A stretch of DNA of 50,941 nt, counting the filler, from Jimgerdemannia flammicorona (Eukaryota): assembly GCA_003990765.1 (NCBI GenBank). It is 2 parts of 2 records of this genome, joined end to end, with 100 filler letters (N's around TTAATTAATTAA, not from the genome) between each part and the next. Parts side by side here need not be neighbours in the genome. Positions count along the whole stretch, not along the records: positions 1 to 25,426 come from RBNJ01000834.1; 1 more part is not named here. The stretch is one strand, 5' to 3'. The first letter of the stretch is position 1. Each line of letters opens with the position of its first letter. A program made the translations under genes and the position numbers. Below are positions 1 to 45,230 of this stretch, piece by piece. The notes under the pieces are model-generated. The model was not told the origin of the DNA. It saw only the letters and a program-made list of their open reading frames with translations, and did not search any database.

Positions 1-300
1 CTTCACCTTGTCAGCAAAGCTCGAGGGACCAGCCTTTCCGCCAACACCACCTGTCGCCAGTCCACCTCGCGAGCCCTCACCACCGTTCGACCCTCCAAAG
101 GCCCCCATCCCCAGGCCATAACCCCTCCCCACTTGCTGCCAGCCGAAAGCCCCAGCTCCCCCCAACCCAGTACGCCCGTTGGAACTCTTGCTTGAAGACA
201 TATTGCTAGTACCTTTACTCCTAGTTGTGTCGAGAACTGTTGCTTGAAGTTTTGTGTAACGTGAATTGTACAGGAGAAAGGTCTGTCCAATTTTCGCCCA
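1..300 (-). mobile_element. 5' end of a young L1/Tx1-like LINE (family 2), truncated by the window edge and nested in ORF1 of the LINE at 301-1530
   Basis: ATG at 201 reads MSSSKSSNGRTGLGGAGAFGWQQVGRGYGLGMG...SFADKVK, homologous to the ORF1 N-terminus at 45231 (AFNWQHVGRGYGLGMG...SFVD). Has the CTTTCTC 5' motif of the family and retains many CpGs. Right boundary approximate. Confidence 0.85.
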
Positions 301-1530
301 TATTCAGTTCTTTGTAAACTCCTCCCATCACCTTTTTCTCAATTTCTTCACAGCCTCCCTCTTCTCCAGAGCCAGTAACAATTCCTTCTCCTCCTACTCT
401 GATCCCTTCCTCCTCCACACCTTACACTCTTGACTGCCAACCTGAATCACCTCTGGCCAGTCCCTACCAAGCCCTGTGGCCTCCTTGTCCTCTAGCTGAA
501 TCATCACCTCACAGTTGCCATTCCTCAGCTTGCTCTCCTCCCAGAACATGAATCCAAAATTGACCATCTCACTAAAGTCTGTCAGTGCCTCTGCCACTAT
601 CCCCTTAGTCTCATGTCTCTCTAGAGTTGGCTGCCCTTCCACCACCAGACATATGGAACATAGATCCCACCTCAGGTACCTCACTATTCCAACCTTAATG
701 CTCTTGACCACTAACTCTTTCTCTAGGGCCTTCATTATCACCTCCTTCTCCACAAAGCCAATCTCCACAGCCTCTGTCAATGGAATAAACTTCAGAGACT
801 CTGCACTGGCAATCTCCTCACCCACCAGCCACAAAACCTCTCTGACAGACAAATCCAGTCCTAGAATATTTGCTGAAATCACCTATATTGATACTAATTT
901 GTAGAAAAAAGAATATACCACCAGTTCTCTGGAGCCAGCTGCCATCATCATCTTCTCCTTATCTTCTAAGATATCAGCAGTTACCCCACCAGCTCCAAGA
1001 AGTCTACCAGCAGTCCCTCCCCCAACCACCAGCCCAGCTACCAGCCCAGTCTCAGAAATACCAATCTCAGTCATCACATCTCCAGACCCCTGTCTCCTGG
1101 CCATCACCTGACATACCATCTGGTTAGTCACCTGACTATCCCCCCTGTCAACACTATATCTCCTCTGCCCTACCCCTATAGGCATAGCAGTAGCCCTCCT
1201 GCCCTCTATTACTATATGCTAGCTTTCAATATCAGCAGGTCTCCTCTGACCACTTATCTCGCCAACAGCAGTACCCACTCCTGCTACTGCTGCAAAACTC
1301 TTAGTGAGGCCCAGGCCAGGCCTCCTCCTCTTCAAGCACTCAGAGCTTGATGAATCTTGGGTCACCATTCAATGAAAACTTGACAATTGTTTTTGTGGAC
1401 TGTTGCCAGACTCCTGTTACACCTAGTACACTAGTGTAGACAAAGTAAAAACTTGAAAACATGTTGCTTTTCACAAAAAGATATCTGTGTGACTTAGCTC
1501 ACTCTGAGGGGTTTGAGCAAAAGAAGTCCT
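301..1530 (-). mobile_element. 5' part (5'UTR + ORF1) of a degenerate LINE, family 1
   Basis: ORF 394-882 (ESLKFIP...LRWD...MVNFGF) matches ORF1 at 30088-30900. The 5'UTR GCTCAAAC...GCTAAGTCACAC matches 29772-29803. Confidence 0.85.
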
Positions 1531-1600
1531 CACCTAGTACTCTACCTGTATTGAGGATTTTACTATGGAACTCTACTTGTATGTTTGTTATAAAATTTCA
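1531..1600 (-). pseudogene. Stranded fragment of Ty1/copia RNase H between two LINE insertions
   Basis: Reads EIL*QTYK*SSIVKSSIQVEY*, a decayed form of the copia ISW.SKKQ..VA.SS..AEY motif. It continues directly from ...YLFHIGKG at 7460. Confidence 0.75.
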
Positions 1601-1601
1601 G

Positions 1602-11700: not shown

Positions 11701-12195
11701 TAATATTAGAGTGACAGAAAGAATTATAAGAATAGTAAAGAGTAATATAATACAAATACTACTGAAACTAATAATAATTAGTGATATATTTTATATATAA
11801 GTAATATATATTAAGTATATAGAGAAAATATCTATATCTATGACAAAGCTATATATTTTTGAGAAAGTAAAAAATAATAATATTAATAGAAAATTATATA
11901 CTAATATAGCTAATAATAATAATATATAACTTATAGATTCAGATACTATATAATATATGATAGTCTATCATAAACCATTTTCCATAAATATATTCTTTAA
12001 GTATCTAGTACCAATTAAGTTAAATAATAATAATATTATATATACTCAAGAAAGAGAAAATATTAGTATATATCTCTATAAGAATATTATAGAGTCTGCT
12101 AGTACTTTTCAGAACATATTATATGTTCTGAAGATAGATAAAAATCTTTTCTCAATTAGTAAAATAATTATTTAAAGTAATAAAGAAATACATAT

Positions 12196-12653
12196 TATAA
12201 TGTAGCAGATGTGGAGATGGACAAATACATCAGATTTCTTTATCTTGAATTCTTGTCTTCTTGACTCCCAGAGTCGGTAGTTCCTTGAGGTCAAATGTGT
12301 TTCAAAGAGGTAATCCCAAAAGTCCCTTTATCAATATACTTGTTCTTTTTCTAACACTTTCGATCTGAGGTTTATTTACTTGAAGATACTGGGGTATTTA
12401 TATAAGTTAGCTAGCTATGAGATGACTTACTAAGTTATGTGGCTAAGTTATGAGTCATTTAGCACTTTGCAAAATATTTTGCCAGTTGTAAAATGCTATA
12501 CTATATCGAGAAGCTCGATCTTACACTTTGCAAAATATTTAGCAAATGGCAAAATTGGAGACTACTGACTATGTGGCTATACTACTTTCAGACTGGTTAT
12601 GATCAAGTATCTGTTCTCTATTTTCTTCTTCCAAATTTGGCTATACCATCACA
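12196..12653 (-). repeat. 3' LTR of gypsy copy 1
   Basis: 458-bp direct repeat of 18404-18861. TG...CA termini, one mutated. Confidence 0.95.
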
Positions 12654-12690
12654 ACTTCCTCCTGAATAGATGATCTCATCCCTAAAGCAT

Positions 12691-13152
12691 CTATTTAAAC
12701 TTCTAGGCTTCAACAGTCTGTATGGTCTTGTACTGTACAATTTGTTGCATTACTGTTTCCCAATAGTACTACCTAACTTGGTCGAAGTCTGAGGGAGTTA
12801 CTCCTCGCAGATGGGCTAGTGCTGGTTCATTCTCTCGGAATAGCTTGTGGATTCTCTTAGTGATAGTAATCTGTGAATAAGAGAGCTGGCATTCTGCAAT
12901 CTAATTTTCTATAGTTATTTCTGGGTCCTGGTTGAGTACTTGGCCAAGTTTGAAGTACTCTTGAAATTCAGTTCAATGTTGATAGGCCTTGAAGTGTGAG
13001 ATTCGAGAGAGATGAGTCTGTATGATGCTTTGGATACTGTCATATGACTCTTCTATGGTCAGAGGCTTGGTAGTGTGCCATTGTCTCTTGATGGCTCTTT
13101 GGGCAGTGCTAGTGATCTTGAGTGCCATTGCAGTACTTTTGTTATTGGTCAT
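12691..13152 (-). pseudogene. Accessory ORF3 of gypsy copy 1 (internal stops)
   Basis: 462 bp, colinear with the intact ORF at 20061-20522. ATG overlaps the integrase end (CATGACCAATAA). Confidence 0.85.
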
Positions 13153-14339
13153 GGTACTTCTTGAGTTGGTTTTGGTGAATGGTAGTGGGGATTATTATGT
13201 CTGAGGGCTTTTATAGATGGAAAGTAGTCCCTTTTATATCTTGCATCAGATAAGGTCCTTCCCACTTGGGCTCTAGTTTTTATGACCAAGAAGCTTCTAC
13301 ATACCATGTTCTGATACACCAGGACTTCATCTCCTATCTTGATAATCTCTAGAGACTTGTGAGTTTTTTCTACATTGTTCCATTATAAGGTTTGTGCCTT
13401 AATTATGTAATCTTCTGCCTTTTTTCTAATTTGATGCAACCTCTATATCTCTATATCTACATACTTCCAGACTGCATCATTATTTGCTGACAAACTTCCA
13501 CTAGAACTTTCTTCTCTGAACAGCATTTCTCAGAGTGTAAAGTGGGTACTTTGTGATTATATATCCCATAGAGTGGATAATGCTATTGGAAGATAGTAGT
13601 CCCAGTTTCCGTATTCATTGCAGATCTTGGCAATAATGTTCTTGAGAGTCTTGTTGGTTCTTTCTGTTTATTCATTTCCTTATAGGTGATAAGCTGTGGT
13701 CTTGATGTGTTGGATCTTGTATTTTGTGTAAAGAATATCATAAAATTGGTTGACAAATTCTGTTTCTCTATCTGTGGTAACTTGCTTTGGGGTCTTGAAT
13801 TGGCAGATAATTTCTCTGTGAAAGAAATCAGCAATTGACTGTGTATTGGCTTCCTTGAGGGGTCTGGCTTCTACCCATTTTGTAAATAGGTCTATAATCA
13901 CAATGACATATCAGTTGCCAGTCAATGTCAGGGGTAGAGGGCCAATAACATCCATTGCTATATGGGCAAATGGTATTGGTTTGATGTCTACTAATCTGGG
14001 GGCTTAATCTCATTGATCTTGTTTCTGTTTCTGGCATTTGTCATAAGTTCTGACAAATTGTCTGATGTGTTCTTCCATTTCTGGCCACTACATGGTTCTT
14101 TTTGCTTTGTCATATGTATTTGTTCCTCCTACATGACCTTGCTCATGTACTTCCTTCATCACTTGATTCTTTCAGTACTTGGAGATAACTACTTGTTGTC
14201 CTTTCTTGAGTATTTCTCCATTAGTTTCAAATTGTTTCCATGTCTGATTAATAATTGTTTTTGTCCATTCTTCCAAATGTGAGGGTATCTTTTGCTGCCC
14301 CAGGTAGCTGATAATTCTATAGTACAGTTCCTTATTCAT
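13142..14339 (-). pseudogene. Integrase ORF of gypsy copy 1
   Basis: Starts MNKELYYRIISYL. Contains IIDLFTKWVEARPL and VTTDR..F. Has stops and frameshifts. Confidence 0.85.
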
Positions 14340-17300
14340 GGTGATTTTGTGGAGGTGGGGTCCACTGAGGTGTCCATGAGAGGGCATCAGCATTGCATTG
14401 GTTCTTCTGGGGTGGTGAATGATTGTGGCATCATATGCTTGCAGCTTTATGATCCATCAGGCATAGATTCCTTTGGATTCACTGGTAGTGAGCAACTAGA
14501 TGAGTGCTGAGTGATCTGTCTGGATGGTGAAATGTCTGTCTGCCAGATAGTAGTGGAATTTCTCTACAGCCCAGATAACTATAAGGCATTCCAGCTTGTA
14601 TGATTTGTAGGACTGCTCAGCTTTATGGGTACCTCAGCTGAGATAGGCTACTACATATTCAGTACTATCCTTCTTTTAAGCAAGGACTGCTCTAAGTCCC
14701 AGAGTACTGGCATCTGTTTGCAAGATAAATTCTTGAGTTCAGTCTGGTCTTCTCAAGATTGGGGCCTGGGTCAATCTGGTCTTGAGCTCATCAAAGGCTA
14801 GTTGCTGCTGCTGTGTCCACTGAAACTTGACCTCTTTTCTGAATAGATCATAGATAGGGCTGGCAATGAGGGAGAATTTTTGAATAAATCTCCTATAATA
14901 GGATGCAAGCCTCATGAAGGCTCAGGCTTCTGTGATACTGGTGGATATGGGGTATGCTGCTACTGTCTTGATTTTCATGGTGTCTGTATATGTTTCTCTA
15001 CCATTGATGATGTGTCTCAGATATGTAATTTCTTCTTCTCCAAACATGCATTTCTTGGGCTTAATGTAGAGGCCATGTTTGTGAAGTCTTCTGAGGATTT
15101 CCTCAATGTGGTCCAAGTGCTCCTTGGCTGTCTGACTGAAGATGATCACATCATTTACATATACCATCATTCATTTTTCCATAACATCCCTGAAGATGCT
15201 ATTCATCATTTGCTGGAAACTTGCTGGTATATTGCACATTCTGAAGGGCATGTGGAGGTAGATATAGATTCCATCAGGAGTGATGAAGCTTGACTTTTTG
15301 CTGGCTTCCAATGTAAGGCTGATTTGGTAGAATCCAGAAAACAGATCTAGGGTGGTGTAGAATTGCACTTCATTTCCTAGTATAATAAGAATGTCACTGA
15401 TATTGGGCAATAGTTGTCTATCTTTCTCTGTGACCTCATTGAGCCTTCTATAGTCTGTACAGAGTCTAGGTGCAAATTCTCCAGATCGGCTCCCTTTCTT
15501 GGGTGTAAGGACAATGGGTGAGGACCAGGGGCTACTGGCTTCCTTGATGTTACCAGATTCCTCCATTTCCTTGATTTCAGTCTTGAGCCATTCCCTGTAT
15601 GCTGGCAGAATGGGGTGGGCTTTTTGGTAAATTGGCTTTGCTTCTCCAGTATTAATATTGTGATAGTATAGAGGCTTCTTGGTCTTGATGTCCTTGAAGT
15701 CAGTGGCCAGTACATCTTCAAATATATGTAGGAGATTCTATAGTTCTTTTCTGAGAGGAAAGTTCTTTCCAATTATATAAGTGTGCTTGTCCTGATTTTC
15801 CTCCTTCTTGTGTAATCTGGGTTACTGTAAGAACTCCTCTTCCTATTGAGCTGAACCTGTTTCTTCCTCACTCTGTTTGTCTGGCTTTTGTAACTTTCTT
15901 GATCCTTGGTTAAGGACAGGTAGGATGAGCATTTGTGCTAGCCAATCCTTCTTCCTTACTTTGAAAGGAATGGTTGGGTTGTGGTTTCTGGCAAGAAGGA
16001 GGATTTCTCTAGTGTAATCTAAATTGATACCTCCTCCTTCTTTAGATATTTCACTTTTGACCAAGCTACTTCTTGTCTTGAGGATTTCAATGTAGTTTGG
16101 CAGGATGGTTACTTTAATTCCTGTTCCCAGTATAGTAGTGGTTTGCAGTTCGAGGATTGTGTATGTTGTAGTGGACAGGTTCATTCCTGCTACATTTTCC
16201 AATTTGTACTGTAGCATGACTGTATCAGGGTGGATTCTTTGTATCTTGACTGTAATGTCTTCTTTATCATCACTGTCATCCAGTAGCTCTGGTGGTCCAT
16301 CTTCTGGTTCCTCCTGGTTCTTCTTTGGCTTGTTGGTGATCTTCTTCACCTTGATGATACAGGAATAGCAGCAATCCAAGTGCTGGGTACAGTACATTCT
16401 TTCACCTTGGGGGCACCTTCCTAATGGGGTGTATCCATCTGCAATTCTTCTATACTATTCCTCCTCTGTCAACTGCTTACCTTTTCCCTTCTTTGTGGTA
16501 ACCATATAGGCTTCTTCTTCTTGCTCTTCCTCTATCTCAGAGCAAACTCCTTTGTGGACATTGATAGGAATTCTGATTTTCTTTCCCCAGTAGATGATTT
16601 GCATCTTCTGTATACTGAGGTCAATCATTGCCTTGGCTTTGTGAAGCCATTGATTGCTGATGAGGATATCATAGTTGGTTGCATTGATAACAATGACATC
16701 TACCAGGATAGTAGCTTCACCAAACTTGATTGGAACATCCTGGATCTTTTCCAAGGGTGTTGCTTATATTCCATTGGCTGTAACAAATTCCAGTTTGGTG
16801 GCTTCTTCTATTTCCCAGCCTAGGTGGTCTACTGCTTTCTTGGTGATGAGACATCCTCCTGCTTCTGTATCAATGATAGCTTCAAAGACTCAGTCCTCAA
16901 TCTGGCAGGTAGTATAGGCTGATGTCTTCTGATTATCTTTGCTTTCTTCATCTGAATCTTCTTGTGCATTATTGGCCTCAATGATTCTGTATCCTTGATC
17001 TTTTCTGATATCAGATATCCCCATTCTCACTTGCTGTCTGAATGTTGGGATTTTAGCCAACTGGCCAAAGGTTGCATTCACCTTCTGGTCTTTGAGGTCC
17101 TTAAAGATATCATATTTGAAGGTCTTGTTCTTGCATAATTTCTATTCCTTCTTTCCTTCACTTGATGGGATGGTATTTCAAATAATATCTTCTACTGCTC
17201 ACTCCAGTTCAATATCTTGTTCTAGCTCCATATCTTGATCAGCTTCAGTCTGCTGGATTTCCTTTTCGATGACTGTTTCTGGTTGTTTCATCTGTGTCTG

Positions 17301-18304
17301 GGCCTTCTTAGAAGGTCTGCCTGGAGGTCTTTTGTAGGGACCAGTTTGGACATCCTTCTTGCTTGTAGTAGTAGGATAAGCTTCCCATTCTTCCCTTTCC
17401 TTGTTAGATTCTCCAATCTCTTCAAAGGTGATGGTGTTCACCTGTTCACAGTTCCTGGTTGCATTACTTGGATTGGTCTTATACTTGGTTTCTATCATAC
17501 AATCAGAGGCATAATGGCCTTCTTCTCCACACCTGTAGCAGGTTACTGATTGCCTGTCATATGTGGCTGTGAATTTCTGTACTGGCTTCTTCTTGAACTC
17601 CTTGACCACATCACTGAGGTGTGCAGTCATTTCTGTAAACTGCTTGGCCAGTTCCTCCATTGGGTCAGCTCTTCTCTGCTCTTGTAGTTGGGGTTGTTGT
17701 TGTGTATTCCTGTTGACTATAGTAGTTGAGGCTGCATTGGTGATCCTCAGTACTTGTTCGATTTTTACTCCTGTTATTCTTTCTATTGTATGGCCTTGAG
17801 GGTGTCTAGCAGTCCAGTATCTTTAGGCATAAGTAATTTTTTGTCCCAGGTCCAGTGCTATTGGGGTAGAGAAGATGGCTAAGGCAATTTCTTGATGAAT
17901 GCCCTTCATGAAGGTATTCTCAGCCACTTGGTCTTGAACTGCATCTGGGTAGTCAGCAAGGACTATTTGGTGTCGGATCTTTGTGTAGAATATGTTTGAG
18001 TCTTCGAACATTCCTTAGCAAATAGTATTCAATTGATCCTTGAGTACTTGTTTGATTTCATCTGTATAGTAGGTTGCTCAGAGCCAGGTCTTGAAAGCCA
18101 GGATTCTTGCTGGATCATCAGCTCCTTGTACATTAGCTGCAGTGAATACAGTTCTTGCTAGGCCTCTGAGGCTATAGGGAGTAAGGCTACTTGTTGCACT
18201 GCACTTAAGATCCTTACAGTAGCATACTGCTCGAAGTCATCAATGAAGGTGATGATTGATTCATCAGAGGTATATCTATGGAATATAGGTGGTCCCATAT
18301 CTAT
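14332..18304 (-). pseudogene. gag-PR-dUTPase-RT-RNase H polyprotein of gypsy copy 1
   Basis: ORF fragments from 17823-18011 through 14922-15170 occur in this domain order. Ends NADALS...HHE*. Confidence 0.9.
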
Positions 18305-18403
18305 TTTTTCTGATTATATTGTGTGGGTTCTTGTTGCAGTTGTTTATTGTTCAGCTTGAAAGTGAGGGATTCATCTTCAATCACCAGCCAATGGGCACTA
18401 AGT

Positions 18404-18861
18404 TGTAATATAGCAGATGTGGAGATGGGCAAGTATGTTGGATTTCTTTATCTTGAATTCTTCTCTCCTTGACTCCTAGAGTTGGTAGTTCCTTGAGGCC
18501 AAATGTATTTCAAAGAGGTAATCCCGAAAGTTCCTTTATCAGTATACTTGTTCTTTTTCTAACACTTTCGATCTGAGGTTTATTCACTCAAAGATACTGG
18601 GGTATTTATACAAGTTTGCTAGCTATGAGATGGCTTACTGAGTTATGTAGCTAAGTTATAAGTCATTTAGCACTTTGTAAAATATTTTGCCAGTTGCAAA
18701 ATGCTATACTATATCAAGAAGCTCAATCTTGCACTTTGCGAAATATTTAGCAAATAGTGAAATCAGGGACTGCTGACTATGTAGCTATACTACTTTGGGA
18801 CTGGTTACAATTAAGTGTCTATTCCCTATTTCCTTCTTCCAAATTTGGTTATACTATTACA
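18404..18861 (-). repeat. 5' LTR of gypsy copy 1
   Basis: Adjacent to the PBS. Direct repeat of 12196-12653. Confidence 0.95.
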
Positions 18862-18903
18862 ATATATACTTTAAGAGAGTAATGATATATATATAGTTTG
18901 AAG

Positions 18904-19192: not shown

Positions 19193-19547
19193 GTTTGAAG
19201 AATAATAAGGAGATTATAATAGTATCAAAATGAGATAATCTTTATTCTATATATATAACTATACTTGATACATCCAATATATAGTATTAATTCTTCAGAT
19301 ATATAGACAAATTAAGTCTAAAAAGAATAATTAGAAAAAGTTCAGTGAGGAGATTGCTAGTATATATAACCTAATGACAACTTTTATAATTATATAGCAA
19401 AAAAAGCATATTAACATCTATTCAATAAACATATAAAATACATATCTAGTATACTCAATTTAATCTATATAGATATATATGGTCTAATATATATTACTTC
19501 TTATAATAGAAAATGATATTTTATTATATTTATTAATAATTATATAT

Positions 19548-20023
19548 TGTAACGTAGCAGACACTTACTCTTGGAAGTACATCGGATTTCTGTATCTTGA
19601 AAACTTGACTGTTCTGACTCTCGCAGAGTCTCTTGAAATTGCAGGGGAGGGTAGGTGAGTTCGAAGTGTATCTGCCCGCAGGCTTACTAGTTCCTTTGCT
19701 ATCTCTTTGCTTTGAACTATTTCGATCTGAGGTTTATTCACTCAAAGATACTGGGTTATTTATACAAGTTTGCTAGCTATGAGAGAGTGGCTAAGTAATA
19801 AATGAGTCATTTGGACTTTGTCGAAACATTTGGACAATGTCTAAATGCTATACTAAATCGGGGTATTCGATTTGGATAATGTCTAAAATTTAGATAATGT
19901 CTAAGGATTTAGACAATGTCAAAATCGAGGACTGCTAACTATAAGGCTATACTACTTTGGGAATGGGTGTGATCAAGTGTCTATTCCCTATTTCCTTCTT
20001 CCTAATTCGGCTATACTGTCACA
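19548..20023 (-). repeat. 3' LTR of gypsy copy 2
   Basis: 476-bp direct repeat of 24832-25307. Confidence 0.96.
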
Positions 20024-20060
20024 ACTTCCTTCTGAATGGATGGTCTCGTCCCTGAGGCAT

Positions 20061-20522
20061 CTATTCAAACTCCCAGACTTCAACAGTCTGTATGGTCTTG
20101 TAGTGTGCAATTTGCTTCATGACTGTCTCCCAATGATGTCTTCTCACTTTCTCGAAGTCAGTAGGGGTTACTTCTCTCAGGTGGTCTATTGCTGCTTCAT
20201 CTTCTTGGAATAACTTGTGGATCCTTTTGGCAATAGTGATCTGTGAGTGGGAGAGTTGACACTCGGCAATCCAGTTCTCCTTGGTCTTTGCTGGATCCTG
20301 ATTGAGCACCTGTCCAAGCTTAAAGTACTCTTGGAATTCTGCCTGATATTGATAGGCTCTAAAGTGCGAGATCCGAGAGAGATGAGTCTGCACAATACTC
20401 TGAATATCCTCACAGAATGGCTCTATGGTCAGAGGCTTGGTGGTGTGCCATTGTCTTTCGATGGCTCTTTGGGCAGCACTAGTGATCTTGAGTGCCATCG
20501 CAGTACTTTTGTTACTGGCCAT
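20061..20522 (-). CDS. Accessory ORF3 (153 aa, unknown function) between integrase and the 3' LTR
   Basis: Open frame conserved in position and length in copy 1. Homologous to the LTR-borne ORF at 26521-27510. Confidence 0.8.
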   Translation of the reverse strand: MASNKSTAMALKITSAAQRAIERQWHTTKPLTIEPFCEDIQSIVQTHLSRISHFRAYQYQAEFQEYFKLGQVLNQDPAKTKENWIAECQLSHSQITIAKRIHKLFQEDEAAIDHLREVTPTDFEKVRRHHWETVMKQIAHYKTIQTVEVWEFE

Positions 20523-21705
20523 GATATTTCTTAAGTTGGTTTTGGGAAATGGTGGTGGGGATTATTGTGCCTGAGGATTTTCGTAGCCAAAAGGTAGTTC
20601 CTTTTATATCTTGCACAAGGTAAGGTTCTTCCCACTTGGGCTCCAGTTTTCGTGACCATGAAGCTTCTACCATATTCCAATACACTAGGACTTTGTCTCC
20701 TATCTTGATAATCTCCAGGGGTTTGTGGGTCTTTTCCGCATTCCTCCATTGCAGTGTCTGCACCTTGGTTATGTAATCCTCAGCCTTCTTCCTGATTTGG
20801 TGTAGTCTCCGTATTTCCACATCCACATGTTTCCATACAGCATCTCTATTGGGTGATAGGGTTTCTTGAGAACATTCTTCTCCGAATAGCATTTCTTGAG
20901 GGGTAAAGTGGGTACTTTGTGATCAGATATCCCGGAGAGCAGATAATGCTATTGACAGATAGTGATCCCAGTTCTTATAGTTATCACAGATCTTAGCGAT
21001 AACATTCTTGAGGGTTTTGTTGGTCCTTTCTACTTGTCCATTTCCTTGAGGGTAATATGCTGTGGTCTGAATATGCTGAATCTTGTACTTCTTGTAGAGA
21101 ACTTCGAAGAACTGGTTCACGAATTCAGTTCCTCTATCTGTAGTTACTTGTGTTGGGGTCTTGAACTGGCAGATGATTTCCTTATAGAAGAAATCGGCGA
21201 TTGACTGTGCATTGGCTTCCATAAGGGGTCCCGCTTCTATCCACTTTGTAAAAAGGTCTATAATGATGATGATATATCAGTTGCCAGTCAAAGTCAAGGG
21301 TAGAGGGCCGATTACATCCATTGCAATATGGGTGAATGGTACTGGTTCTATGTGTGCTGATCCTGGGGCTTGATTCCATTGGTCTTGTTTCTGTTTCTGG
21401 CATTTGTCGCATGTTTTGACGAATTGTCTGATATCTTCCTCCATCCCTGGCCACCATATTGTTCTTCTTGCCTTGTCGTATGTATTCGTTCCTCCTAGAT
21501 GGCCAAGTTCATGTACTGATTTTATCACTTGCTCCTTCTTGTGTTTGGGTATAACCAGTAGTTTTCCTTTCTTCAGTGTTTCTCCGTTGGTTTCGAATTG
21601 TTTCCATGTCCTGTTGATAATCATTTGTGTCCATTCTTCCAGATGTTGGGGCATCTTTCGCTGTCTCAGGTATGTGATAATTCCATAGTAGAGCTCCTTA
21701 TTCAT
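20512..21705 (-). pseudogene. Integrase as a separate ORF (398 codons, few in-frame stops)
   Basis: HELGHLG...CDKC zinc finger, D-D-E core (IAMDVIGP, TTDRGTEF, QVERTNK) and a GPY/F-like KWEEPY, all in one frame. No chromodomain seen. Confidence 0.9.
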
Positions 21706-24700
21706 GATTGCTTTGTTGGTTAGAGGTAGTTTGAGGTGTCCATGAGAGAGCATCTGCATTGGAATTTGTTCTTCCAGGGTGGTGTACGATGGTTACATCA
21801 TAGGCTTGTAACTTCATTATCCATCTGGCATAGATTCCTTTGGGTTGTCTGGTTATCAGTAGCCAGGTGAGAGCTGAGTGGTCCGTCTGGATGGTGAAGT
21901 GTCTTCCAGCCAGATAGTAGTGGAACTTTTCCACAGCCCAGATGACTGCAAGGCATTCCAGCTTATAGGACTTGTATTCTTTTTCAGCTCCTCAGGTTCC
22001 ATGGCTAAGATATGCAATGACATACTCCTTTTTGTCTTCTTTTTGAGCTAGGACTGCTCCTAGTCCTTATGCACTTGCATCCGTCTGAAGGATAAATTCC
22101 TGGATCCAATTGGGTCGTCTGAGGATAGGTGCCTGGTCAGTCTGACCTTGAGTTCATCAAATGCTTTCTGTTGTCTGCCAGTCCACTGGAACTTGGTATT
22201 CTTCTTGTTGAGTTTGTAGATCTTGGTGCTGGTGAATACTCCTCTTCCTGTGGATCCGAATCCTTTCTTTCCTCTTTTCGTTTCCTCCAGATTCTTGACT
22301 TCTATGATCCTTGGCTGTATGATTGAGAAGATCAACATCTGTGCCAATCGGTCCTTCTTCTTGACTGGGAATGGAATTGTAGGATTGTGGTTCCTAGCAA
22401 TGAGTAGAATTTCTCCAGTATAGTCTGAATCAATGACTCCTCCTTCAATTGTGATTTCGCTTCTAGCCAGGCTGCTTCTTGTCTTGAGAATCCTAACATG
22501 ATCCTTTGGGATGGTCATCTCCAGTCCAGTTGGGAGTAGGGTGGTTGTCTGGGGTTCCAGTACAGTCTCTTCCACTGTAGCGATGTTCATTCCAGCTGCA
22601 TTTTCTGACTTGTATTCTGGCAGGACTGCATCAGGGTGGATCTTTCGAATTTTGACCTTGATTTCTTCTTCATCATCACTGTCCTCCAGGAGGGCTGGTG
22701 GTTCATCATCTTCCTCCTTCTCTTCTTCCCTGATCTGTTTTTCGAGAGCTTTCTGCCTTCTTTCCTCATAGATCTTCTTGGTTCTGATGGTGCACTGGTA
22801 GCAATCATTGACATGCTCTGTACAGTACATCTTGATCCCATGAGGACAGACTCCTTGTGGGGCATAGCCTTCTGCGATCTTCTTGCACCATTCTTCTTCA
22901 CTCATCTATCCGACCTTCTTCTTTTTTGGAGTAGTCACCATATAAGCTTCCTCTTGCTCACTCTCTTCTTTCTCCATATCGGGCAGGACTCCTTTGTTGA
23001 CGTTGATGGGAATTCATATCTTCTGTCCCCGGTAGGTGATCTGCATCTTCTGAGCATTGAGATCGATTACTGCCTTGGCTTTGTGAAGCCATTGATTGCT
23101 GATGAGGATGTCATAGTTGGTGGCATTGGTTACGATTACATCTACTGGGATTATTGCTCCTCCGATCTTGATGGGAACATCTCAGATCTTTCCCAGAGGT
23201 GTGGCTCTTGTGCCATCGGCTGTGACAAATACTAGCTTAGTTGCTTCTTCCACATCCCAACCTAGGCAGTCTGCTGCCTTCTTACTGAGGAGACATCCTT
23301 CTGCTCCTGTGTCAATGATGGCTTCAAAGACTCGATCCTCAATTTGGCATGTTGCATAAGCAGAGGTTTTGTGATTGTCCTCACTTTTTTCTCCTGAATC
23401 CTCTTGAACATTATTGGACTCAGTTATCTTCCATCCTTGTTCCTTAGTTGTTTCGGCAAGTCCAAACCTCATTTGCTGTCTGAATGTTGGGATTTCTGCA
23501 AGCTGACCAAAGGTTGCATTGACCTTTTGTTGACTGAGATCCTTGAAGATATCATACTTGAAGGTCTTGGTCTTGCGAAGCTTCTTTTCTTTTTCTCCTT
23601 CGCTGGCTGGAGTGGTCCCTCGGATGATATCTTGAACTACTTGCTCCAGCTCGATATCTTGGTCCATCTCTTCGGCTTCACTTTCTGTGGCAGTTTCCAT
23701 CTGCTTTTCCACTGGGTTCTTCTTGGGTCTTCCTGTTGGTCTCTTGTAGGGTTCTTTGCGAACACCCTTCTTGGTGGTCTGAGCAGGGTAGGCCTCCCAT
23801 TCCTCTTCATTGGATTCTCCGATTTCTTCAAAGATGATTGTATTGGCCTGCTCCTTGTTTCGTGTAGCATTGCTTGGTTGAGCCTTGTGTTTGGTTTCAC
23901 TCATACATTTGTAGGAGTAGTGGCCTTCTTCTCCGCAGCTGTAGCAGGTACCTTTCTTCTTGTCTGAGGTGGCGGCAAACTTCTGAACAAGGTGGCGATC
24001 TCTTCCTCAGATTTCCTTTACCACATCTCCCAGGTGGGCAGTCATTTCAGCAAACCTTTTGGTGAGTTCCTCCATAGGGTCACTGTTCTTTTGCTGCTCA
24101 GTAGCTTTTGGCTGAGGTGTGTTTCGATTGATCATTGTGGTGGGGATCATACTGGTTGCCTTGGGTGCCTCGATTCTGACTCCTGTAACTCTTTCCATTG
24201 TATGGTCTTGTGGGTGTCTGGCTATCCAGTATCGCTGAGCATAGGTGACCTTCTGTGGCAGATCCAGAATCACTGGTGATGAGCGGATGGCCATGGCTAT
24301 TTCCGGATGGACTCCTTTCATGAAGGTTGCTTCAACTACTTGATCTCGGATAGCAGTAGTATAATCTGCAAGGATTATCTGATATCGAATTCTGGTATAG
24401 AATGTGTTTGGATCCTCACTCATTCCTTAGCATGTTGTGTTGAGCTAATCCTTCAGGGCTTGCTTGATCTCATCTGTGTAATATGTATTTCGGAGCCAGG
24501 TCTTCTGTGCTGTCAGTATAGCATCCGCATCATTTCCTGCATGGGTTGCGGCTGTGAATGCTGCTCTGGCAGGACCTCGTAGGCTGAAGGGCATGAGGGC
24601 TACTTGATGTACTGCTGTCAGGGTCCTTACAGCAGCATACTGCTCAAAATCATCAATGAAGGTGATGATTGATTCATCTGAGGTATATCCATGGAATACT

Positions 24701-24717
24701 GGTGGTCTCATATCCAT
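21698..24717 (-). pseudogene. gag-PR-dUTPase-(RT deleted)-RNase H polyprotein of copy 2
   Basis: ORFs 24445-24963, 24007-24423, 23182-23904 and 22060-22905 share one frame. RH (TDHSALTWL...NADALS) ends at TAA 21698. Confidence 0.9.
22246..22662 (-). other. dUTPase domain within pol (homolog at ~15840-16257)
   Basis: Five trimeric-dUTPase motifs: AAGMNI, KTRSSLA, GGVIDSDYTGEI, DRLAQM, RGKKGFGSTG. Confidence 0.95.
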
Positions 24718-24810
24718 CTTGTCTGGGTATTGGGGCTCGGTTTGTATGGTTGTTTGGGTGGTGGTGGTTGTTCGTTGTTCAGCTTGAAAGTGAGGGATTC
24801 GTCTTGAATC

Positions 24811-24828
24811 ACCAGCCAATGGGCACCA
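24811..24828 (-). other. PBS TGGTGCCCATTGGCTGGT of gypsy copy 2
   Basis: TGG begins after a 3-nt spacer following the 5' LTR. Conserved in copy 1. Primer tRNA not identified. Confidence 0.75.
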
Positions 24829-24831
24829 AGT

Positions 24832-25307
24832 TGTAACATAGCAGATGCTTACTCTTGAAAGTACGTCGGATTTCTGTATCTTGAAAACTTGACTGTTCTG
24901 ACTCTTGTAGAGTCTCTTGAAATTGCAGGGGAGGGTGGGTGAGTTCAAAGTATATCTGCCCACAGGCTTACTAGTTCCTTTGCTATCTCTTTGCTTTGAA
25001 CTATTTCGATCTGAGGTTTATTCGCTCGAAGATACTGGGTTATTTATACAAGTTTGCTAGCTATGAGAGGGTGGCTAAGTAATAAATGAGTCATTTGGAC
25101 TTTGTCAAAACATTTGGACAATGTCTAAATGCTATACTAAATCGGGGTATTTGATTTGAATAATGTCTAAAATTTAGACAATGTCTAAGGATTTAGACAA
25201 TATCGAAATTGAGGACTACTAACTATAAGACTATACTACTTTGGGAATGGGTGCGATCAAGTGTCTATTCCCTATTTCCTTCTTCCTAATTCAGCTATAC
25301 TGTCACA
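24832..25307 (-). repeat. 5' LTR of gypsy copy 2
   Basis: Direct repeat of 19548-20023. TATAAA on the minus strand at ~25044-25049. Confidence 0.96.
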
Positions 25308-25426
25308 ATATATAAAGTATATATATACTTATTATTAGTAGAGAACAAAGTTCTGAATAAATTTAAAGAATTTAAAGTAATTATAGAGAATGAAATAAGA
25401 TATAGAATATATACTATATGCTTAGA

Positions 25427-25526
25427 NNNNNNNNNNNNNNNNNNNNNNNNNNNNNNNNNNNNNNNNNNNNTTAATTAATTAANNNNNNNNNNNNNNNNNN
25501 NNNNNNNNNNNNNNNNNNNNNNNNNN
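25427..25526. other. Assembly gap with artificial TTAATTAATTAA six-frame-stop linker
   Basis: 100-bp N spacer with the linker at 25471-25482. Confidence 0.98.
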
Positions 25527-25755: not shown

Positions 25756-27798
25756 TGTAAGAGGGTTACTTTTTAGGATAACTGTTATGTAGTTCTGGAA
25801 GGGTTTTCTGAAAGTTCTGGATATTCTGGAAGACTGTTTTCTTATGGTCAAGGTCAATTTCGTATGGAGTACGTCCTCTACACTTATTAATTTCAAGATT
25901 GGGTTGACGTCTCAACCAAAGTCCTTTTCCGGACTAGTTCTGGATGTTCAGGATTTTCCATATTTCAGGAAGTTCAGGAAACTAAGACCAGCTTAGTTGG
26001 ATTGGCATATTGCTGCAGACAATACCCAATTAGGAAATTTCGTGGCAGGGTTGGGAGTGGGACCTAACAGGGAGCGGATTTACTTAAGAGTGGTTTGTGG
26101 GTTATGGAATAGATTTATTTGCTATTCATGATATTGCTATACTAGGAGTATTTGTGTGAAGGGGTATTGTGGGGAAGTATTCAGGAATGTTCTTGTCTGT
26201 TCGAGTCTCAGATTCTGAGGTCTGGGGGAGGGGGTATTTATACTAGTGAGGGGCTATCTAGACTATGCTAGATATGGATGTAGCACTAAGTGCCTTGCTG
26301 AGTCGGAATGCAGTCACGTAGTACAAGTGTGATCTGACATGTCAAGAGATCGTCTGACTGCTGAGTCAGTTCACAGTCACGTCATACAAGGCTAATCTAT
26401 CTATACTATGACTGCTAGACTATTTATAGGTCTAGGCACTATCTGGGTAGTCTTCGATGATATCACCATCAATTGCATCATCTCTGATGAAGTAGTTGTC
26501 TAGGAAGAGTGGTTCACGGATTACTTCTCCTTGTTGGCTGAGGTAGTAATCATTGGGACTTCATCTCCGTCCCATAGGATAGCATCATCTGTCTCGTACC
26601 CTGGATAAGGTGTTGGTGGGCAAAGGATAGGTGTATTGTCTTCGCTTTCATCGGATTCACTATCTGCGTACCTTCTATAGGTTACAGCACTATGAGTCAT
26701 GGAGTTGTAGTAAGCTGGCGGCTCTGGTTCAAGTTGCTTATACTCAGGTGGTGGAGTGGTTGGTTCAATCTCGAGGGTTGTCTGGAGGTACAGATTGTGT
26801 TCTCCGGTCTCTTCATTGTAGTTGAAGTAGTCGGGGGTGAATGCAGGTTGGTATTCGTGCCAGTGGTCATTGTCCCAATAAGTCTCATATGCAGTTATGA
26901 ACTGTTGTAAGTTCATTGGCAAGGTTGGCGGAGATCCTTGGCTAGAGGTCATGTCGGTGTCAGAGGGGTCATTGTCTTCTGCTTTGTCTTCATTGAAGTG
27001 GATTATATCGTAGACATCCTTCATGGTGTATCCGACTTGAGGCATTTGCAGGATATGGTCATCGGGGTGCGGGAAAGTTCTGTCTGTGGTTTCGACATAC
27101 TCGAGGTACTTGTGGTTGATTTCTTGTATCATGTCATCGATTTGGCCATAGGACAGAGTAGCAACCATTTCGCTGATAGTGACTCGGAGGTGGGGAATAA
27201 AGGTGTTGTACTCATAGAAGAGATCTCAATGTTTGTAGGTGATGAGCTTCTGGTGTTGAGACAGCTGGGTAATGTCTGTATCATGGTGGTGTTCGACCAT
27301 GTCTTCCAGGAGGCGGCCAATCTGGTAGTAGCTTGAGATTTGTCCGATTCGGTGTGCCTCGCTAAGCATGTTCAGGGCGTTCCATCGGGCTTCCACAAAG
27401 TAGAGGGGTGCTAGGCTATGGATATTCATGAGGGGCAGAGGGGGTGTGGCTCGGTTGACAATGGCATTTCAAATGTCAGCGCGGATGCGGTTGTAGATCT
27501 CAGTGGTCATGTTGGTGTGTTTGGAAGTTGTGGTTGTTGTTTGTTTTGGTTTTCTGATTCGACGCATCTCGGTGCTCAGTATATATGCATTTGGTCCTAA
27601 TTGGTAAGGTTCCGTTTGTGTAGATCTTGTGTTCCATGACTTTGTATTGACTCAGCTTTGTGCGCTGTGACTTCGGTTTGACTCAGCTTCGTGATCAAGC
27701 AGGTGATTTCCAGATTTGTTCGGAGGTCGCATGTGATTTCAGTGGCTTGTTCAGAGGGTGATGTGTAATTTTGGTGGCTTGGAGGTTGTGCGCTTACA
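25756..27798 (-). repeat. Probable 2043-bp 5' LTR of a third LTR retrotransposon (internal part runs into the gap)
   Basis: Inverted termini TGTAAG...CTTACA, adjacent PBS, TATAAATACCCC at ~26231-26242. Sharp composition change at 27798. Partner LTR is not in the window. Confidence 0.75.
26521..27510 (-). pseudogene. 329-aa ORF inside the LTR: ORF3-like N-terminal domain plus acidic/Pro/Tyr-rich C-terminus
   Basis: ATG at 27510 and ORFs 27226-27429 and 26521-27168 are all in one frame. Interrupted by only two TGA codons, probably CGA>TGA. Confidence 0.8.
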
Positions 27799-28036: not shown

Positions 28037-28111
<75 letters not shown>

Positions 28112-34700: not shown

Positions 34701-35566
34701 GAGATGGTGGCATTTGGGGGAACTCTATATTAGTGATCATAGTCTGAAGGAGTACTCATTGGTTGAGGTGATGGAATGGATCAGGCCTGGCCCTCTAGAG
34801 AGATAGCTGACAGGTTGGCAGAAGGCAGGATTGGGTGAAGGCTGGGAGTGGGGCAGAATCTAGAGTTGGGGAGATATCTTACTCAAGGTAGTACCCCCTA
34901 AGTACTGGGTTATATAGTGGCACTTTCTGAGAAAGAATGTGATATTGGGGTATCAGATAGGATAGATGGAGGTAGATGGCTGTTGGGACTACAAGTGGTG
35001 CAGTGAGATAGATAGTGGGGTGGTTCAGTCACTAGAGCATATTCTGGCAGCCTGCCCTGGTATAGAAGGGTTCTGACAGTGCTTGGAAGATTACTGGCAT
35101 ACTGCTGGCAGAAGGACAGAGGATTCTGTCAGTCTGGTAGTCAAGTGCCAGCTGGTGGGAGAGATAGAAGATGTCTGGGGTAGCCTAGGTCGAGTCCTGG
35201 GGGTCTGGGTTCTGATGGCAGTACATTAGAGATGGGTGTTTGAGTGAGACCCATGGTTAGAGATTGGTGAGCTGGTGGAGCAGTGAAAGTGGCTTCTTTG
35301 GGAGGTAGTATAAGGGTGGTGATATCAGGGGAGGTGGCTTCAGCCAGAGACCTTGTGGAAGGTACAGGATATTATTCAGCAGAGTTGAGGACACCTGGTA
35401 TTGGATGAGTATGGGATCAGATAGAAGGAAGGAGTTGGGTGACTGACCCTATCTAAATATGATATGTTACTATAGCAGTTGTGGTTAATTTTCTTGTAAT
35501 AGTGTTTTAGATAGTTTGAATAAAGAAGTCCAAGTAACTGTAAAAAAAAAAAAAAAAAAAAAAAAA

Positions 35567-35600
<34 letters not shown>

Positions 35601-36167: not shown

Positions 36168-36251
<84 letters not shown>

Positions 36252-45143: not shown

Positions 45144-45230
45144 CATTCCATCTTTCTCTGCTATAATTCGCATTACACACACTTTTACAACACACTTTCA
45201 AGGTGTTTATTGGAGAAAGATACTAAGGCA

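Follow-up and report, generated by a model that had tools for sequence, protein, structure and literature searches.

The window, by which we mean the whole stretch of 50,941 nucleotides of Jimgerdemannia flammicorona DNA that was analysed, harbours two decayed copies of one Ty3/gypsy LTR retrotransposon family, as judged from their repeats and predicted domains (Table 1). Direct LTRs flank the coding region of both copies, as in Ty3/gypsy elements (Metaviridae). The LTRs of copy 1 are 478 bp each and have TG..CA ends, and all 25 differences between them are transitions. A stretch beginning with TGG, located 2-3 nt past the 5′ LTR of copy 1, is a candidate primer binding site, and a purine-rich GGAAG precedes its 3′ LTR at the polypurine tract position; no tRNA genes that could match the candidate site were found in the window. 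The LTRs of copy 2 are 88.7% identical across 460 bp. Since the two copies share 70-77% identity at the DNA level, against 94.8% between the LTRs of copy 1 (self-blastn), they are independent insertions of diverged subfamilies. The sole Rfam match in the window was a U6 snRNA, and its 36 further ORFs had no Pfam match.

Table 1. Features of the two retrotransposon copies in the window
Feature	Position	Strand	Evidence and remarks
Copy 1, LTR retrotransposon	19547..25308	-	self-blastn LTR pair; decayed, without RT core
5′ LTR of copy 1	24831..25308	-	self-blastn
3′ LTR of copy 1	19547..20024	-	self-blastn
ORF1 remnant, copy 1	21698..24717	-	gag with CCHC knuckle, protease, dUTPase, RT tail, RNase H; gag ATG at 24717, stop TAA 21700-21698
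RNase H/integrase junction, copy 1	21696..21706	-	CATGAATAAGG; integrase ATG 21705-21703, ORF1 stop TAA 21700-21698
Integrase cistron (ORF2), copy 1	20512..21705	-	397 codons, Pfam; stop TAA 20514-20512
Integrase/ORF3 junction, copy 1	20511..20523	-	CATGGCCAGTAAC; ORF3 ATG 20522-20520, integrase stop 20514-20512
ORF3, copy 1	20061..20522	-	153 codons, intact, without stops
Copy 2, same family	12195..18862	-	LTR pair (18403-18862 and 12195-12654) and Pfam; older, heavily decayed, RT core present
RNase H/integrase junction, copy 2	14330..14340	-	CATGAATAAGG; ATG 14339-14337, TAA 14334-14332
Integrase/ORF3 junction, copy 2	13141..13153	-	CATGACCAATAAC

Pfam analysis of ORF1 of copy 1 detected zf-CCHC, Asp_protease_2, dUTPase (2.1e-26) and RT_RNaseH (1.2e-20). 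A tblastn search with ORF1 of the related metagenome locus L001 revealed 6+2 in-frame stops in this copy, the loss of residues 796-1104, which correspond to the RT core, and, near 22135, a frameshift that copy 2 does not share. Copy 2 keeps the RT core (RVT_1, 9e-25) and carries 19 stops in ORF1, 14 in the integrase and four in ORF3. The relatives L001, L002 and L030 possess an unbroken ORF1 of 1281, 1493 and 1651 codons, respectively, all with CCHC, protease (PR), dUTPase, RT and RNase H. The Pfam domain order PR-RT-RNase H-IN, found in the window copies and in these three relatives, is that of Ty3/gypsy elements. The original prediction that gag and pol form one frame holds for the family, as the 1281 open codons of L001 indicate, but not literally for either window copy.

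At the RNase H/integrase junction, the plus strand reads TTATTCATG in both copies (21698-21706 and 14332-14340) and the minus strand CATGAATAA. The local RNase H frame ends as CAT GAA TAA (H-E-stop), and the +1 frame reads ATG AAT AAG (M-N-K), which is the integrase start. The stop sits +5 nt relative to the integrase ATG in both copies, and ORF1 and the +1-frame integrase overlap by 8 nt in copy 1. This is in agreement with the prediction in coordinates and sequence, including the linkers before the junction, which differ between the copies as had been claimed and are equal in length (25 nt). A 1-nt deletion private to copy 2 lies some 60 nt before the junction, within the N-A-D-A-L codons; because of it, the bulk RNase H frame of this copy runs directly into the integrase frame and H-E-stop ends only the final 26 codons. 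The agreement of the two window copies is explained by shared descent; it is conservation in related loci, described below, that shows the junction to go beyond chance.

The integrase of copy 1 contains two internal stops, matches Integrase_H2C2 (8.5e-21) and rve (2.3e-11) in Pfam, and shares 82% identity with the L001 integrase. Between the two copies, dN/dS (NG86) was 0.117 for the integrase (383 codons used, 15 skipped), 0.108 for ORF3 (147 used, seven skipped), 0.134 for gag-PR and 0.121 for the RNase H tail, compared with 1.0-1.5 for the two off-frames. Integrase and ORF3 have thus evolved under purifying selection across both subfamilies, with dN/dS of about 0.11. Many stops, frameshifts and a deletion mark both window copies as pseudogenes, as would be the case if an inactivating mutation common to dead or non-autonomous copies had caused the frame break and integrase were not made from them. 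Nevertheless, this explanation is hardly credible, since both of the selected subfamilies carry the break, relatives with intact ORF1 and integrase are arranged alike, and the ATG with its adjacent stop is conserved throughout the clade.

A word-indexed protein search retrieved 236 protein clusters of stand-alone integrase relatives at E<=1e-30, and 99 of the 120 listed have at least 99% query coverage, with 43-96% identity. At 43% identity or more, every relative of the integrase is a stand-alone protein (about 400-570 aa), whereas the 89 longer, fused proteins do not exceed 38% identity. Twelve out of the fourteen protein matches that reach the first six query residues begin within their own first six, with the motif M-[N/D/E]-x-x-x-Y. 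The fused relative P0100 (1497 aa) has a Met at the homologous site within a continuous frame. The taxon labels that the Atlas gives for the integrase N-terminus are mixed, namely Arthropoda, Mucoromycota, Basidiomycota and Oomycota. Source names given to the integrase relatives include 'InsO family' and 'IS30 family'.

From metagenomes, 74 contigs of the clade were recovered. The junction was compared in 30 metagenome loci with a match reaching integrase residue 9 or earlier, 29 of them with upstream DNA; the locus search used five closer sequences, the 15-sequence alignment being too diverse. The ORF of the RNase H tail stops between -5 and +8 nt from the A of the homologous first-codon ATG in 27 of the 29 loci. 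Nine of these 27 junctions have the form ATGA and nine TAATG or TGATG, three have ATGAATAA or ATGAATAG, three ATGGnnnTAG and one ATGAACACTGA, and two possess a spacer of 1-2 nt. The remaining two are the degenerate L031 and L060, an outgroup of 28% identity with fused RNase H and integrase. The integrase AUG itself is present in 28/29 loci, counting L023 with a 1-nt displacement, and 11 of the 27 integrases have no stop in 400 codons.

Twenty-two loci have the integrase in the -1 frame, whereas five loci and the two window copies have it in the +1 frame; the +1 forms do not cluster in the integrase tree (17 of 27 rows used). Since both alternative frames of ATGAATAA and ATGAATAG contain a stop, an indel in the linker can change the frame with the stop unmoved. 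The tight stop/AUG geometry spans integrase identities of 32-83%, and frame and linker sequence vary freely. In both copies and the 27 loci, the integrase stands out of frame behind a stop, unlike in the polyprotein of Ty3/gypsy elements, and the AUG lies less than about 20 nt from the upstream stop, as in termination-reinitiation. The element is filed in Ty3/gypsy as a variant, its separate integrase being a trait of gene expression and not of ancestry.

Sequence of the family was found in the 14 public sequencing runs listed, soil metagenomes among them, and none of the 14 is an RNA run. Contigs from four public runs cover the family. The junction-bridging contigs shown (X2 record 10 and X6 record 27) are gap-free, and no indel lies at 21690-21800 among those listed from the contig alignment, which has 13 further ones. 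One contig each in X2 and X3 joins 21706 to 21819, skipping 112 nt, which would put a truncated RNase H in frame with the integrase; the short side of this joint has just 21-26 letters, with the part between recorded as 'not known', and its ends, AT..TT, are not intron-like. As to whether the frame break is fixed, a check put forward with the original prediction, the comparison drew on metagenome loci and public-run contigs; RNase H and integrase occupy different frames in the most intact relatives, and the one continuous frame that would have spoken against the prediction was not seen there.

The comparison indicates that the integrase is a separate gene by design and not the product of a broken pol, and it supports a clade arrangement in which the stop/start overlap is fixed and the element has three ORFs. 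The predicted separate integrase cistron is borne out by the 27/29 loci with a stop within 8 nt of the conserved ATG, by selection and by several intact relatives; the predicted three-ORF gypsy with overlapping junctions is likewise supported by dN/dS and the related loci.

Reinitiation, +1 frameshifting and a separate RNA had been offered as mechanisms. The conserved AUG beside the stop combined with a variable frame favours termination-reinitiation, whereas +1 frameshifting does not fit a step of +1 in five loci and -1 in 22. Programmed frameshifting to an ORF1-integrase fusion (+1 in the window's family and -1 elsewhere, maybe at a slow GAA-UAA-G stop) would have to change direction between close lineages and would leave the invariant AUG unexplained, and we regard it as very improbable. 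The loci showed neither a slippery heptamer or common shift site nor the constant direction expected for +1 frameshifting of the Ty1, Ty3 or antizyme type. Stimulation of +1 shifts by a stop codon in the A site is known, a fusion would explain integrase packaging, and in copy 1 and L001 the stretch before the AUG has 29-36 open codons in the integrase frame. However, the frame is closed one codon before the ATG in L005, seven in L052, eight in L050, nine in L022 and ten in L032, therefore leaving little space for a frameshift site.

Other candidates were rejected. Splicing across the junction is opposed by the nearby GT dinucleotides, which lie only inside conserved RNase H codons, and a trans-splicing acceptor by the lack of a conserved AG upstream of the AUG. 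The linkers contain no conserved homopolymer run for transcriptional slippage. Stop-codon reassignment is irrelevant, as the frames differ and TAA, TAG and TGA end ORF1 in different relatives.

Our best explanation, to which we give a probability of roughly 0.6, is a three-cistron family with termination-coupled reinitiation at the integrase AUG. A single frame of some 1280-1650 codons, ORF1, encodes gag-CCHC, protease, dUTPase, RT and RNase H; ORF2 encodes the integrase alone, and ORF3 a conserved protein without recognisable fold family. We infer that a ribosome done with ORF1 would remain on the full-length RNA and restart at an AUG 2 to 8 nt away, that integrase would thereby be made at a set fraction of Gag-Pol, and that it would enter the particle unfused to Gag-Pol; independent packaging had been suggested with the original prediction and is a reasonable idea. 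Against the proposal stands the usually very low efficiency of reinitiation in eukaryotes once the upstream ORF exceeds 1200 codons.

Upstream signals were searched in 24 non-redundant 120-nt regions. The motif UGGGA, which in the calicivirus type lies upstream and is complementary to 18S rRNA, was present in just two of them, so that 18S complementarity of this kind is not a general feature by the motif count. No shared primary-sequence signal was found in the 24 regions, their sole enriched k-mers being the coding ADALSR block. In just 11/24 regions does the AUG have a purine at -3, so selection for a scanning-type context is not apparent.

Folding of the 120 nt ending at the junction gave z = +0.47 for copy 1 and +2.45 for L001, and no upstream structure was seen in these two members of the window's own family. 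Among the -1-type loci, 11/19 possess a hairpin in the most stable 5% of their own locus's 45-nt windows, ending 3-12 nt before the restart codon, but the hairpin-bearing loci are not phylogenetically independent and represent about seven lineages. A stable local hairpin is present in just 1/7 of the +1-type loci. In one subclade of six sequences, a 13-pair hairpin is 97.4% paired, with four pairs changed on both sides. In the available part of the review PMC10275272, a structured element upstream of the stop/start overlap, often just upstream, is described for viral reinitiation after long ORFs; the window's own family differs in this respect.

In both copies, ORF3 starts inside the integrase end in the +1 frame, as had been predicted, and the minus strand at this junction reads CATGGCCAGTAA or CATGACCAATAA. 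ORF3 homologues were found downstream of the integrase for 36 of 40 candidate ORFs from related loci, and across the clade they measure about 115-280 aa. ORF3 of copy 1 had no Pfam match at default thresholds, 27 ORF3 members gave only scattered single Pfam matches at E<=1, and a PDB profile search found nothing (best E = 0.12); the Atlas neighbours of ORF3 gave no clue to its function either. The integrase/ORF3 overlap is 8 nt in the window's family and varies from 1 to 71 nt in the clade. Reinitiation at ORF3 is therefore plausible in the window's family but, the overlap being loose, would not be a clade-wide rule.

Retroviral env and foamy-virus pol are made from spliced mRNA. Similarly, integrase and perhaps ORF3 could be translated from an mRNA of their own (subgenomic, spliced or from an internal promoter) or from an IRES, with the overlap reflecting genome compaction. 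This is unlikely, given that such an mRNA needs no ORF1 stop near the AUG, yet 27/29 loci keep one within 8 nt, and that the looser integrase/ORF3 junction of the same elements provides an internal contrast. The range of that looser overlap nonetheless fits a separate mRNA better than tight coupling, and the undetectable upstream tethering structure in the window's family also speaks for it. ORF3s of LTR retrotransposons also typically come from spliced messages, according to the accessible text of PMC5408684. On the other hand, neither an AG acceptor nor another shared motif lies upstream of the AUG, the -3 position does not indicate scanning, and no GT..AG pair around the junction spares the conserved RNase H tail.

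Ty3/gypsy elements with dUTPase between protease and RT include the bdelloid Juno, Vesta and TelKA, fungal elements and the planarian Burro. As far as the available portions of PMC5408684 and PMC6431247 go, the window's family shares with all of these the LTRs, the CCHC gag, the order PR-dUTPase-RT-RH-IN and a downstream ORF3, as well as the H2C2 finger, the DDE core and the GPY/F-like module of an integrase without chromodomain. In these elements, PR, RT, RH and IN lie together in pol and any frame change is between gag and pol, in the accessible part of PMC5408684. Unlike them, the window's family keeps gag to RNase H in a single frame, with the break falling between RNase H and integrase. 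Its ORF3 matches none of the ORF3 types named in that part of PMC5408684.

Among viruses, the victorivirus overlap of stop and start is AUGA. Termination-reinitiation is also described for calicivirus and influenza B TURBS and for the hypovirus CHV1 with UAAUG, in the available text of PMC10275272 and PMC2699510. Similar to the window's family, an out-of-frame AUG overlaps or abuts the stop of a long ORF (UAAUG, AUGA), the two being at most 20 nt apart, as the same portion of PMC10275272 presents it. The family differs in the scarcity of UGGGA-type motifs, in the greater length of the upstream ORF and in being a DNA-integrated retrotransposon.

The sole retrotransposon named in the accessible text of this review is SART1, a silkworm non-LTR element with ORF1/ORF2 coupling at UAAUG, which likewise has a stop/start overlap for the second protein (PMC10275272). 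SART1 is a LINE that couples a gag-like ORF1 to an RT ORF2 and needs structure downstream of the stop, in the same part of the source. The present element, unlike SART1, has LTRs and is split inside pol, and stable downstream structure was found in just 8/23 loci and not in the window copies.

Caulimoviridae are related to gypsy and reinitiate close or overlapping ORFs on one long RNA, and they lack integrase. The feature shared with the window's family is the close spacing or overlap of ORFs; Caulimoviridae need a viral transactivator, as mentioned in the available part of PMC10275272. ORF3 showed no detectable similarity to this transactivator (Pfam, E<=1). A tricistronic genomic RNA of an undescribed dUTPase-gypsy clade with ORF3 as helper is a doubtful reading, in which ribosomes would end on a Gag-Pol ORF of 1300-1650 codons and restart on the overlapping AUG, and ORF3 would either promote reinitiation like the caulimovirus transactivator or bring free integrase into the particle. 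ORF3 is specific to the clade and was present in all members examined. If this reading were true, dosage control would have moved from Gag:Pol to Pol:IN, and the clade would offer a natural example of integrase recruited in trans.

Ty1 and Ty3 share with the window's family a +1 step in the coding region of a retrotransposon, in the accessible text of PMC5911963. In Ty elements the shift takes place at a defined heptamer between gag and pol, with no AUG required, whereas here the break is at RNase H/integrase, next to a conserved AUG, and most relatives step by -1. Foamy viruses make Pol independently of Gag, via splicing, so that Gag and Pol are split, and plant Ogre elements have pol split by an intron between PR and RT. 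Both are precedents for a retroelement enzyme outside one Gag-Pol chain; unlike in them, no intron signal is present at the junction and the split is located elsewhere.

In textbook LTR retrotransposons and retroviruses, integrase reaches the particle as the tail of Gag-Pol, and enzyme dosage is set by frameshift or readthrough between gag and pol. The present clade, which is large, found in soil metagenomes and apparently undescribed, encodes as a whole a free-standing integrase behind a stop/start overlap. A full-text search of the literature, with subscription-only papers and Repbase outside its range, returned no description of a gypsy element with separately encoded integrase, nor of reinitiation in an LTR retrotransposon. 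If reinitiation is true, this would be the first case found in an LTR retroelement and would add to the eukaryotic examples of efficient restart downstream of a very long ORF. The clade also provides natural signal variants for comparison, such as ATGA, TAATG and ATGAATAA, some with an upstream hairpin and some lacking it, and its arrangement raises the question of how an integrase not fused to Gag-Pol would locate the reverse-transcription complex. Pipelines built around one undivided pol will annotate such elements as broken and their integrase as a bacterial-type transposase.

Both copies of the gypsy LTR retrotransposon carry a stop/start overlap between RNase H and integrase, as the original prediction had proposed; bases, three-frame translation and Pfam domains agree on it. 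By translation, the RNase H tail ends as N-A-D-A-L-S-W-(13 aa)-H-E-stop, and a 397-codon integrase is opened by an ATG lying one base on, relative to the frame of the tail. Pfam domains upstream of the junction include a CCHC knuckle, an aspartic protease, dUTPase (2.1e-26) and RT_RNaseH (1.2e-20), and the integrase frame matches Integrase_H2C2 (8.5e-21) and rve (2.3e-11). RVT_1 (Pfam, 9e-25) was present in copy 2 only, of the two copies. The start of ORF3 inside the integrase end, likewise anticipated, was seen in both copies (CATGGCCAGTAAC in copy 1, CATGACCAATAAC in copy 2), with an ORF3 of 153 codons opening +1 to the integrase.

Coordinates of the retrotransposon copies, their RNase H/integrase junctions and the hairpins of related loci
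Feature	Location	Strand	Details
Copy 1, LTR retrotransposon	19547-25308	(-)	self-comparison; 478-bp LTRs, 94.8% identical
Copy 2, LTR retrotransposon	12195-18862	(-)	460-bp LTRs, 88.7% identical
RNase H/integrase junction, copy 1	21698-21706	(-)	plus strand TTATTCATG, coding strand CATGAATAA
RNase H/integrase junction, copy 2	14332-14340	(-)	plus strand TTATTCATG, coding strand CATGAATAA
13-pair hairpin	L006:2757-2803		fold and covariation
13-pair hairpin	L007:255-301		fold and covariation
13-pair hairpin	L008:136-182		fold and covariation
13-pair hairpin	L010:415-461		fold and covariation
13-pair hairpin	L023:66-112		fold and covariation
13-pair hairpin	L025:1797-1843		fold and covariation

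By ancestry, the family belongs to the dUTPase-bearing Ty3/gypsy elements. PMC6431247 and PMC5408684 report elements of rotifers, fungi and planarians in which a dUTPase lies between protease and RT, and the window's family likewise has its dUTPase at this position. In full-text literature, with subscription journals and Repbase outside the scope of the search, we found neither a gypsy element with the integrase as its own cistron nor reinitiation in an LTR retrotransposon.

Copy 1 and copy 2 are both dead elements. Relative to L001, a close relative on a metagenome contig, ORF1 (gag to RNase H) of copy 1 has eight in-frame stops and a private frameshift near 22135, its integrase has two internal stops, and its ORF3 is intact. 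The RT core of copy 1 is absent, with L001 residues 796-1104 missing. Against the same reference, the damage in copy 2 comprises frameshifts as well as stops, of which 19 fall in ORF1, 14 in integrase and 4 in ORF3. One of these frameshifts, a private 1-nt deletion some 60 nt ahead of the junction in the codons for N-A-D-A-L, makes most of its RNase H read directly into the integrase frame. DNA identity between the copy interiors is just 70-77% (self-comparison), a divergence far above that between the LTRs of either copy, which marks them as separate insertion events from diverged subfamilies. The same difference rules out in-place duplication as their origin. The LTRs of copy 1 (19547-20024 versus 24831-25308) show 25 differences, every one of them a transition, and transitions also prevail among the differences to contigs of four public runs (e.g. 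443 of 508 in the contig set X1), which points to deamination-type decay. The abundant in-frame stops are consistent with C-to-T decay acting on methylated or RIP-like sites.

That the frame break is itself a product of decay is extremely improbable. Comparing copy 1 with copy 2 in their own frames gave low dN/dS throughout (integrase 0.117; ORF3 0.108; gag-protease 0.134; dUTPase 0.174; RNase H tail 0.121), against 1.0-1.5 in the two alternative frames. Since both subfamilies share the break and dN/dS is low (about 0.11 for integrase and ORF3), these two were functional while the break existed, and relatives with intact ORFs also keep it. Selection, relatives and intact members together identify the frame break as design, not decay.

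A 5-sequence integrase alignment was used to scan metagenome contigs and gave 74 loci, 30 of which match at integrase residue 9 or earlier; upstream DNA is available for 29 of these 30. In 27 of the 29 loci, the frame of the RNase H tail is closed by a stop at -5 to +8 nt relative to the A of the homologous first-codon ATG. Their junctions take the form ATGA (nine loci), TAATG or TGATG (nine) and ATGGnnnTAG (three), and more rarely ATGAATAA or ATGAATAG (three), ATGAACACTGA (one) or a spacer of 1-2 nt (two). Two loci depart from this: L031 is degenerate, and in L060 (28% identity) RNase H and integrase are fused, as they also are in more distant loci (25-28% identity). Single open ORF1s of 1281, 1493 and 1651 codons, each with CCHC, protease, dUTPase, RT and RNase H, are present in L001, L002 and L030, respectively. 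The L001 integrase is 83% identical to that of copy 1, and integrases free of stops over 400 codons were found in 11 of the 27 loci. With low dN/dS, the stop at the ATG in 27 of 29 loci and intact relatives, the claim that integrase is a separate cistron is supported. The most intact relatives keep the break, so the refuting condition named in the original prediction, RNase H and integrase in one frame in the youngest copies, does not overturn it.

A protein search with the integrase against 1.84 billion representatives gave similar N-termini. Among the 150 matches listed, 14 alignments reach the first six query residues, and 12 of the 14 begin at their own first six, following the pattern M-[N/D/E]-x-x-x-Y. 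The remaining two comprise one alignment beginning at residue 25 and one internal to a 1497-aa polyprotein (P0100). This fused gag-pol-integrase keeps a Met at the stand-alone integrase start site (...IGT-M-D-I-L-Y-Y...), and its fusion may be secondary or an artefact of the gene model. A word-indexed search of the near-length class, with the intact integrase of locus L003 as query, returned 236 near-length proteins at E<=1e-30; among the 120 matches listed, 99 are 43-96% identical to the query over at least 99% of its length, all from metagenome sources. The same query against longer proteins returned 89 fused polyproteins with identities no higher than 38%, in a search where absence is weak evidence. 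Source labels in metagenome annotation for such integrases include 'transposase InsO family protein' and 'IS30 family transposase', likely a systematic mis-annotation of eukaryotic retrotransposon integrases that results from the integrase standing alone.

Four public runs (three soil metagenomes and one organism) contain 1684, 291, 194 and 36 pieces of the family at a likeness of at least 80%. Among the matches listed, junction-bridging contigs have no gaps, and no indel at 21690-21800 appears among the rows listed for the four runs. One candidate joint, 21706->21819, would skip 112 nt in one contig each of two runs, with a short side of just 21-26 letters; it would join integrase in frame to a shortened RNase H, and its ends are not intron-like. 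What was first seen in two dead copies extends to an abundant clade whose tricistronic plan is conserved.

Across the clade, the AUG and the stop lying a few nt from it are conserved; the frame step can go either way. Integrase is +1 to ORF1 in the window's family, L002, L032, L034 and L052, and -1 in 22 loci; the +1 forms split between two groups on the integrase tree (17 rows, with 10 short or frameshifted rows omitted). In the window's family, each alternative frame of ATG AAT AAR meets a stop, TGA at +1 or TAA at +5, so that an indel in the linker can switch the frame with the termination site unmoved. TGA is the ORF1 stop of L003, L013 and L051, the loci carrying ATGAATAA or ATGAATAG. Of the mechanisms put forward in the original prediction, reinitiation fits this geometry of conserved AUG, nearby stop and variable frame, whereas +1 frameshifting fits it poorly. 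Programmed frameshifting into an ORF1-integrase fusion is very doubtful, given that the step varies between +1 and -1 among loci and that the integrase frame is closed 1-10 codons ahead of the AUG in several of them.

As described in the review PMC10275272, reinitiation after long viral ORFs uses an out-of-frame start that shares nucleotides with the stop (UAAUG, AUGA), with an AUG as restart codon at most 20 nt from the stop and often a structured element upstream; the SART1 LINE is given there as a retrotransposon example. The junctions of the clade resemble viral termination-reinitiation in the UAAUG/AUGA-type overlap, the AUG restart and the closeness to the stop. Ribosomes would end on the ORF1 stop and restart on the overlapping or adjacent integrase AUG, and we place the probability that integrase is made by such termination-coupled reinitiation at about 0.6. 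Its translation from a separate mRNA or by internal entry (IRES) seems unlikely, since neither needs the stop to sit on the AUG, and the looser integrase/ORF3 junction, with the ATG 1 to 71 nt before the stop, shows weaker constraint.

The calicivirus-type tethering signal UGGGA occurs in just 2 of 24 non-redundant upstream regions, and these regions share no k-mer beyond the coding ADALSR block. Folding z-scores of the 120 nt ending at the junction scatter about zero, with L007 (-3.4) as sole outlier. When the 45 nt ending at the restart site were set against every window of that length from their own locus, they fell within the most stable 5% in 11 of 19 -1-type loci versus 1 of 7 +1-type loci, the hairpin-bearing loci representing about 7 lineages and not 11 independent observations. 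In the L006-L025 subclade (6 sequences only), a GC-rich 13-pair hairpin ends 5-9 nt ahead of the stop; its pairing is 97.4%, and in four pairs both sides have changed in a compensatory manner. This hairpin overlaps the conserved RNase H-tail peptide G-K-G-P-P-F-T-E. At this position upstream of the junction, copy 1 and L001 show unusually little structure and are rich in A and C. Of 23 loci, 8 have stable structure 3' of the junction, and the window copies are not among these.

For ORF3, related loci supplied 40 candidate ORFs at the 3' end of integrase, and an iterative search grouped 36 of them with the window's ORF3 into one family, of which 27 members were aligned. This family has no match in Pfam even at E<=1 and none among PDB sequences, and its Atlas neighbours are uninformative. 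The overlap of integrase and ORF3 is 8 nt in the window's family, is ATGA in six loci and extends elsewhere up to 68-71 nt; across related loci the first in-frame ORF3 ATG precedes the integrase stop by 1 to 71 nt. Because of the 8-nt overlap and the six ATGA loci, a second restart is plausible at this junction in the window's family and in those loci. In L001 the integrase stop is lost at the ORF3 junction, and the L001 integrase is itself a pseudogene.

Outside the gypsy copies, no host genes were found in the rest of the window by Pfam, tRNA and Rfam searches. The filler join shows two 44-N runs (25427-25470 and 25483-25526) about 120 nt past the 5' LTR of copy 1, and the 112-nt stretch beside them (25315-25426) is 76% identical to 9559-9670. 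On the other side of the filler, upstream of copy 1, 26524-27225 (-) holds a 234-codon open frame, low-complexity, proline- and acidic-rich and with no Pfam match, which may belong to another element. G-versus-C strand asymmetry is strong and block-wise, with GC skew of -0.36 to -0.50 at 1-8000 and +0.33 to +0.49 at 30000-50941 (both 43-55% GC) and near zero in the gypsy copies and AT-rich spacers (28-31% GC); the ORFs tested in the skewed blocks had no Pfam match. A full-length U6 snRNA match at 44756-44859 (+) (71.8 bits versus a gathering score of 44) lies about 300 nt upstream of ORFs at 45144-46361, which have no Pfam match, with a LINE-like ORF farther on at 47485-49377 (RVT_1 1.8e-18; endonuclease match weak, below the cut-off). 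The match may represent either a chimera of U6 and a LINE or a true U6 gene. Homopolymers at 28037-28108 (T72), 35542-35598 (A57) and 36168-36249 (a perfect A82) could derive from non-LTR elements, as their poly(A) tails.
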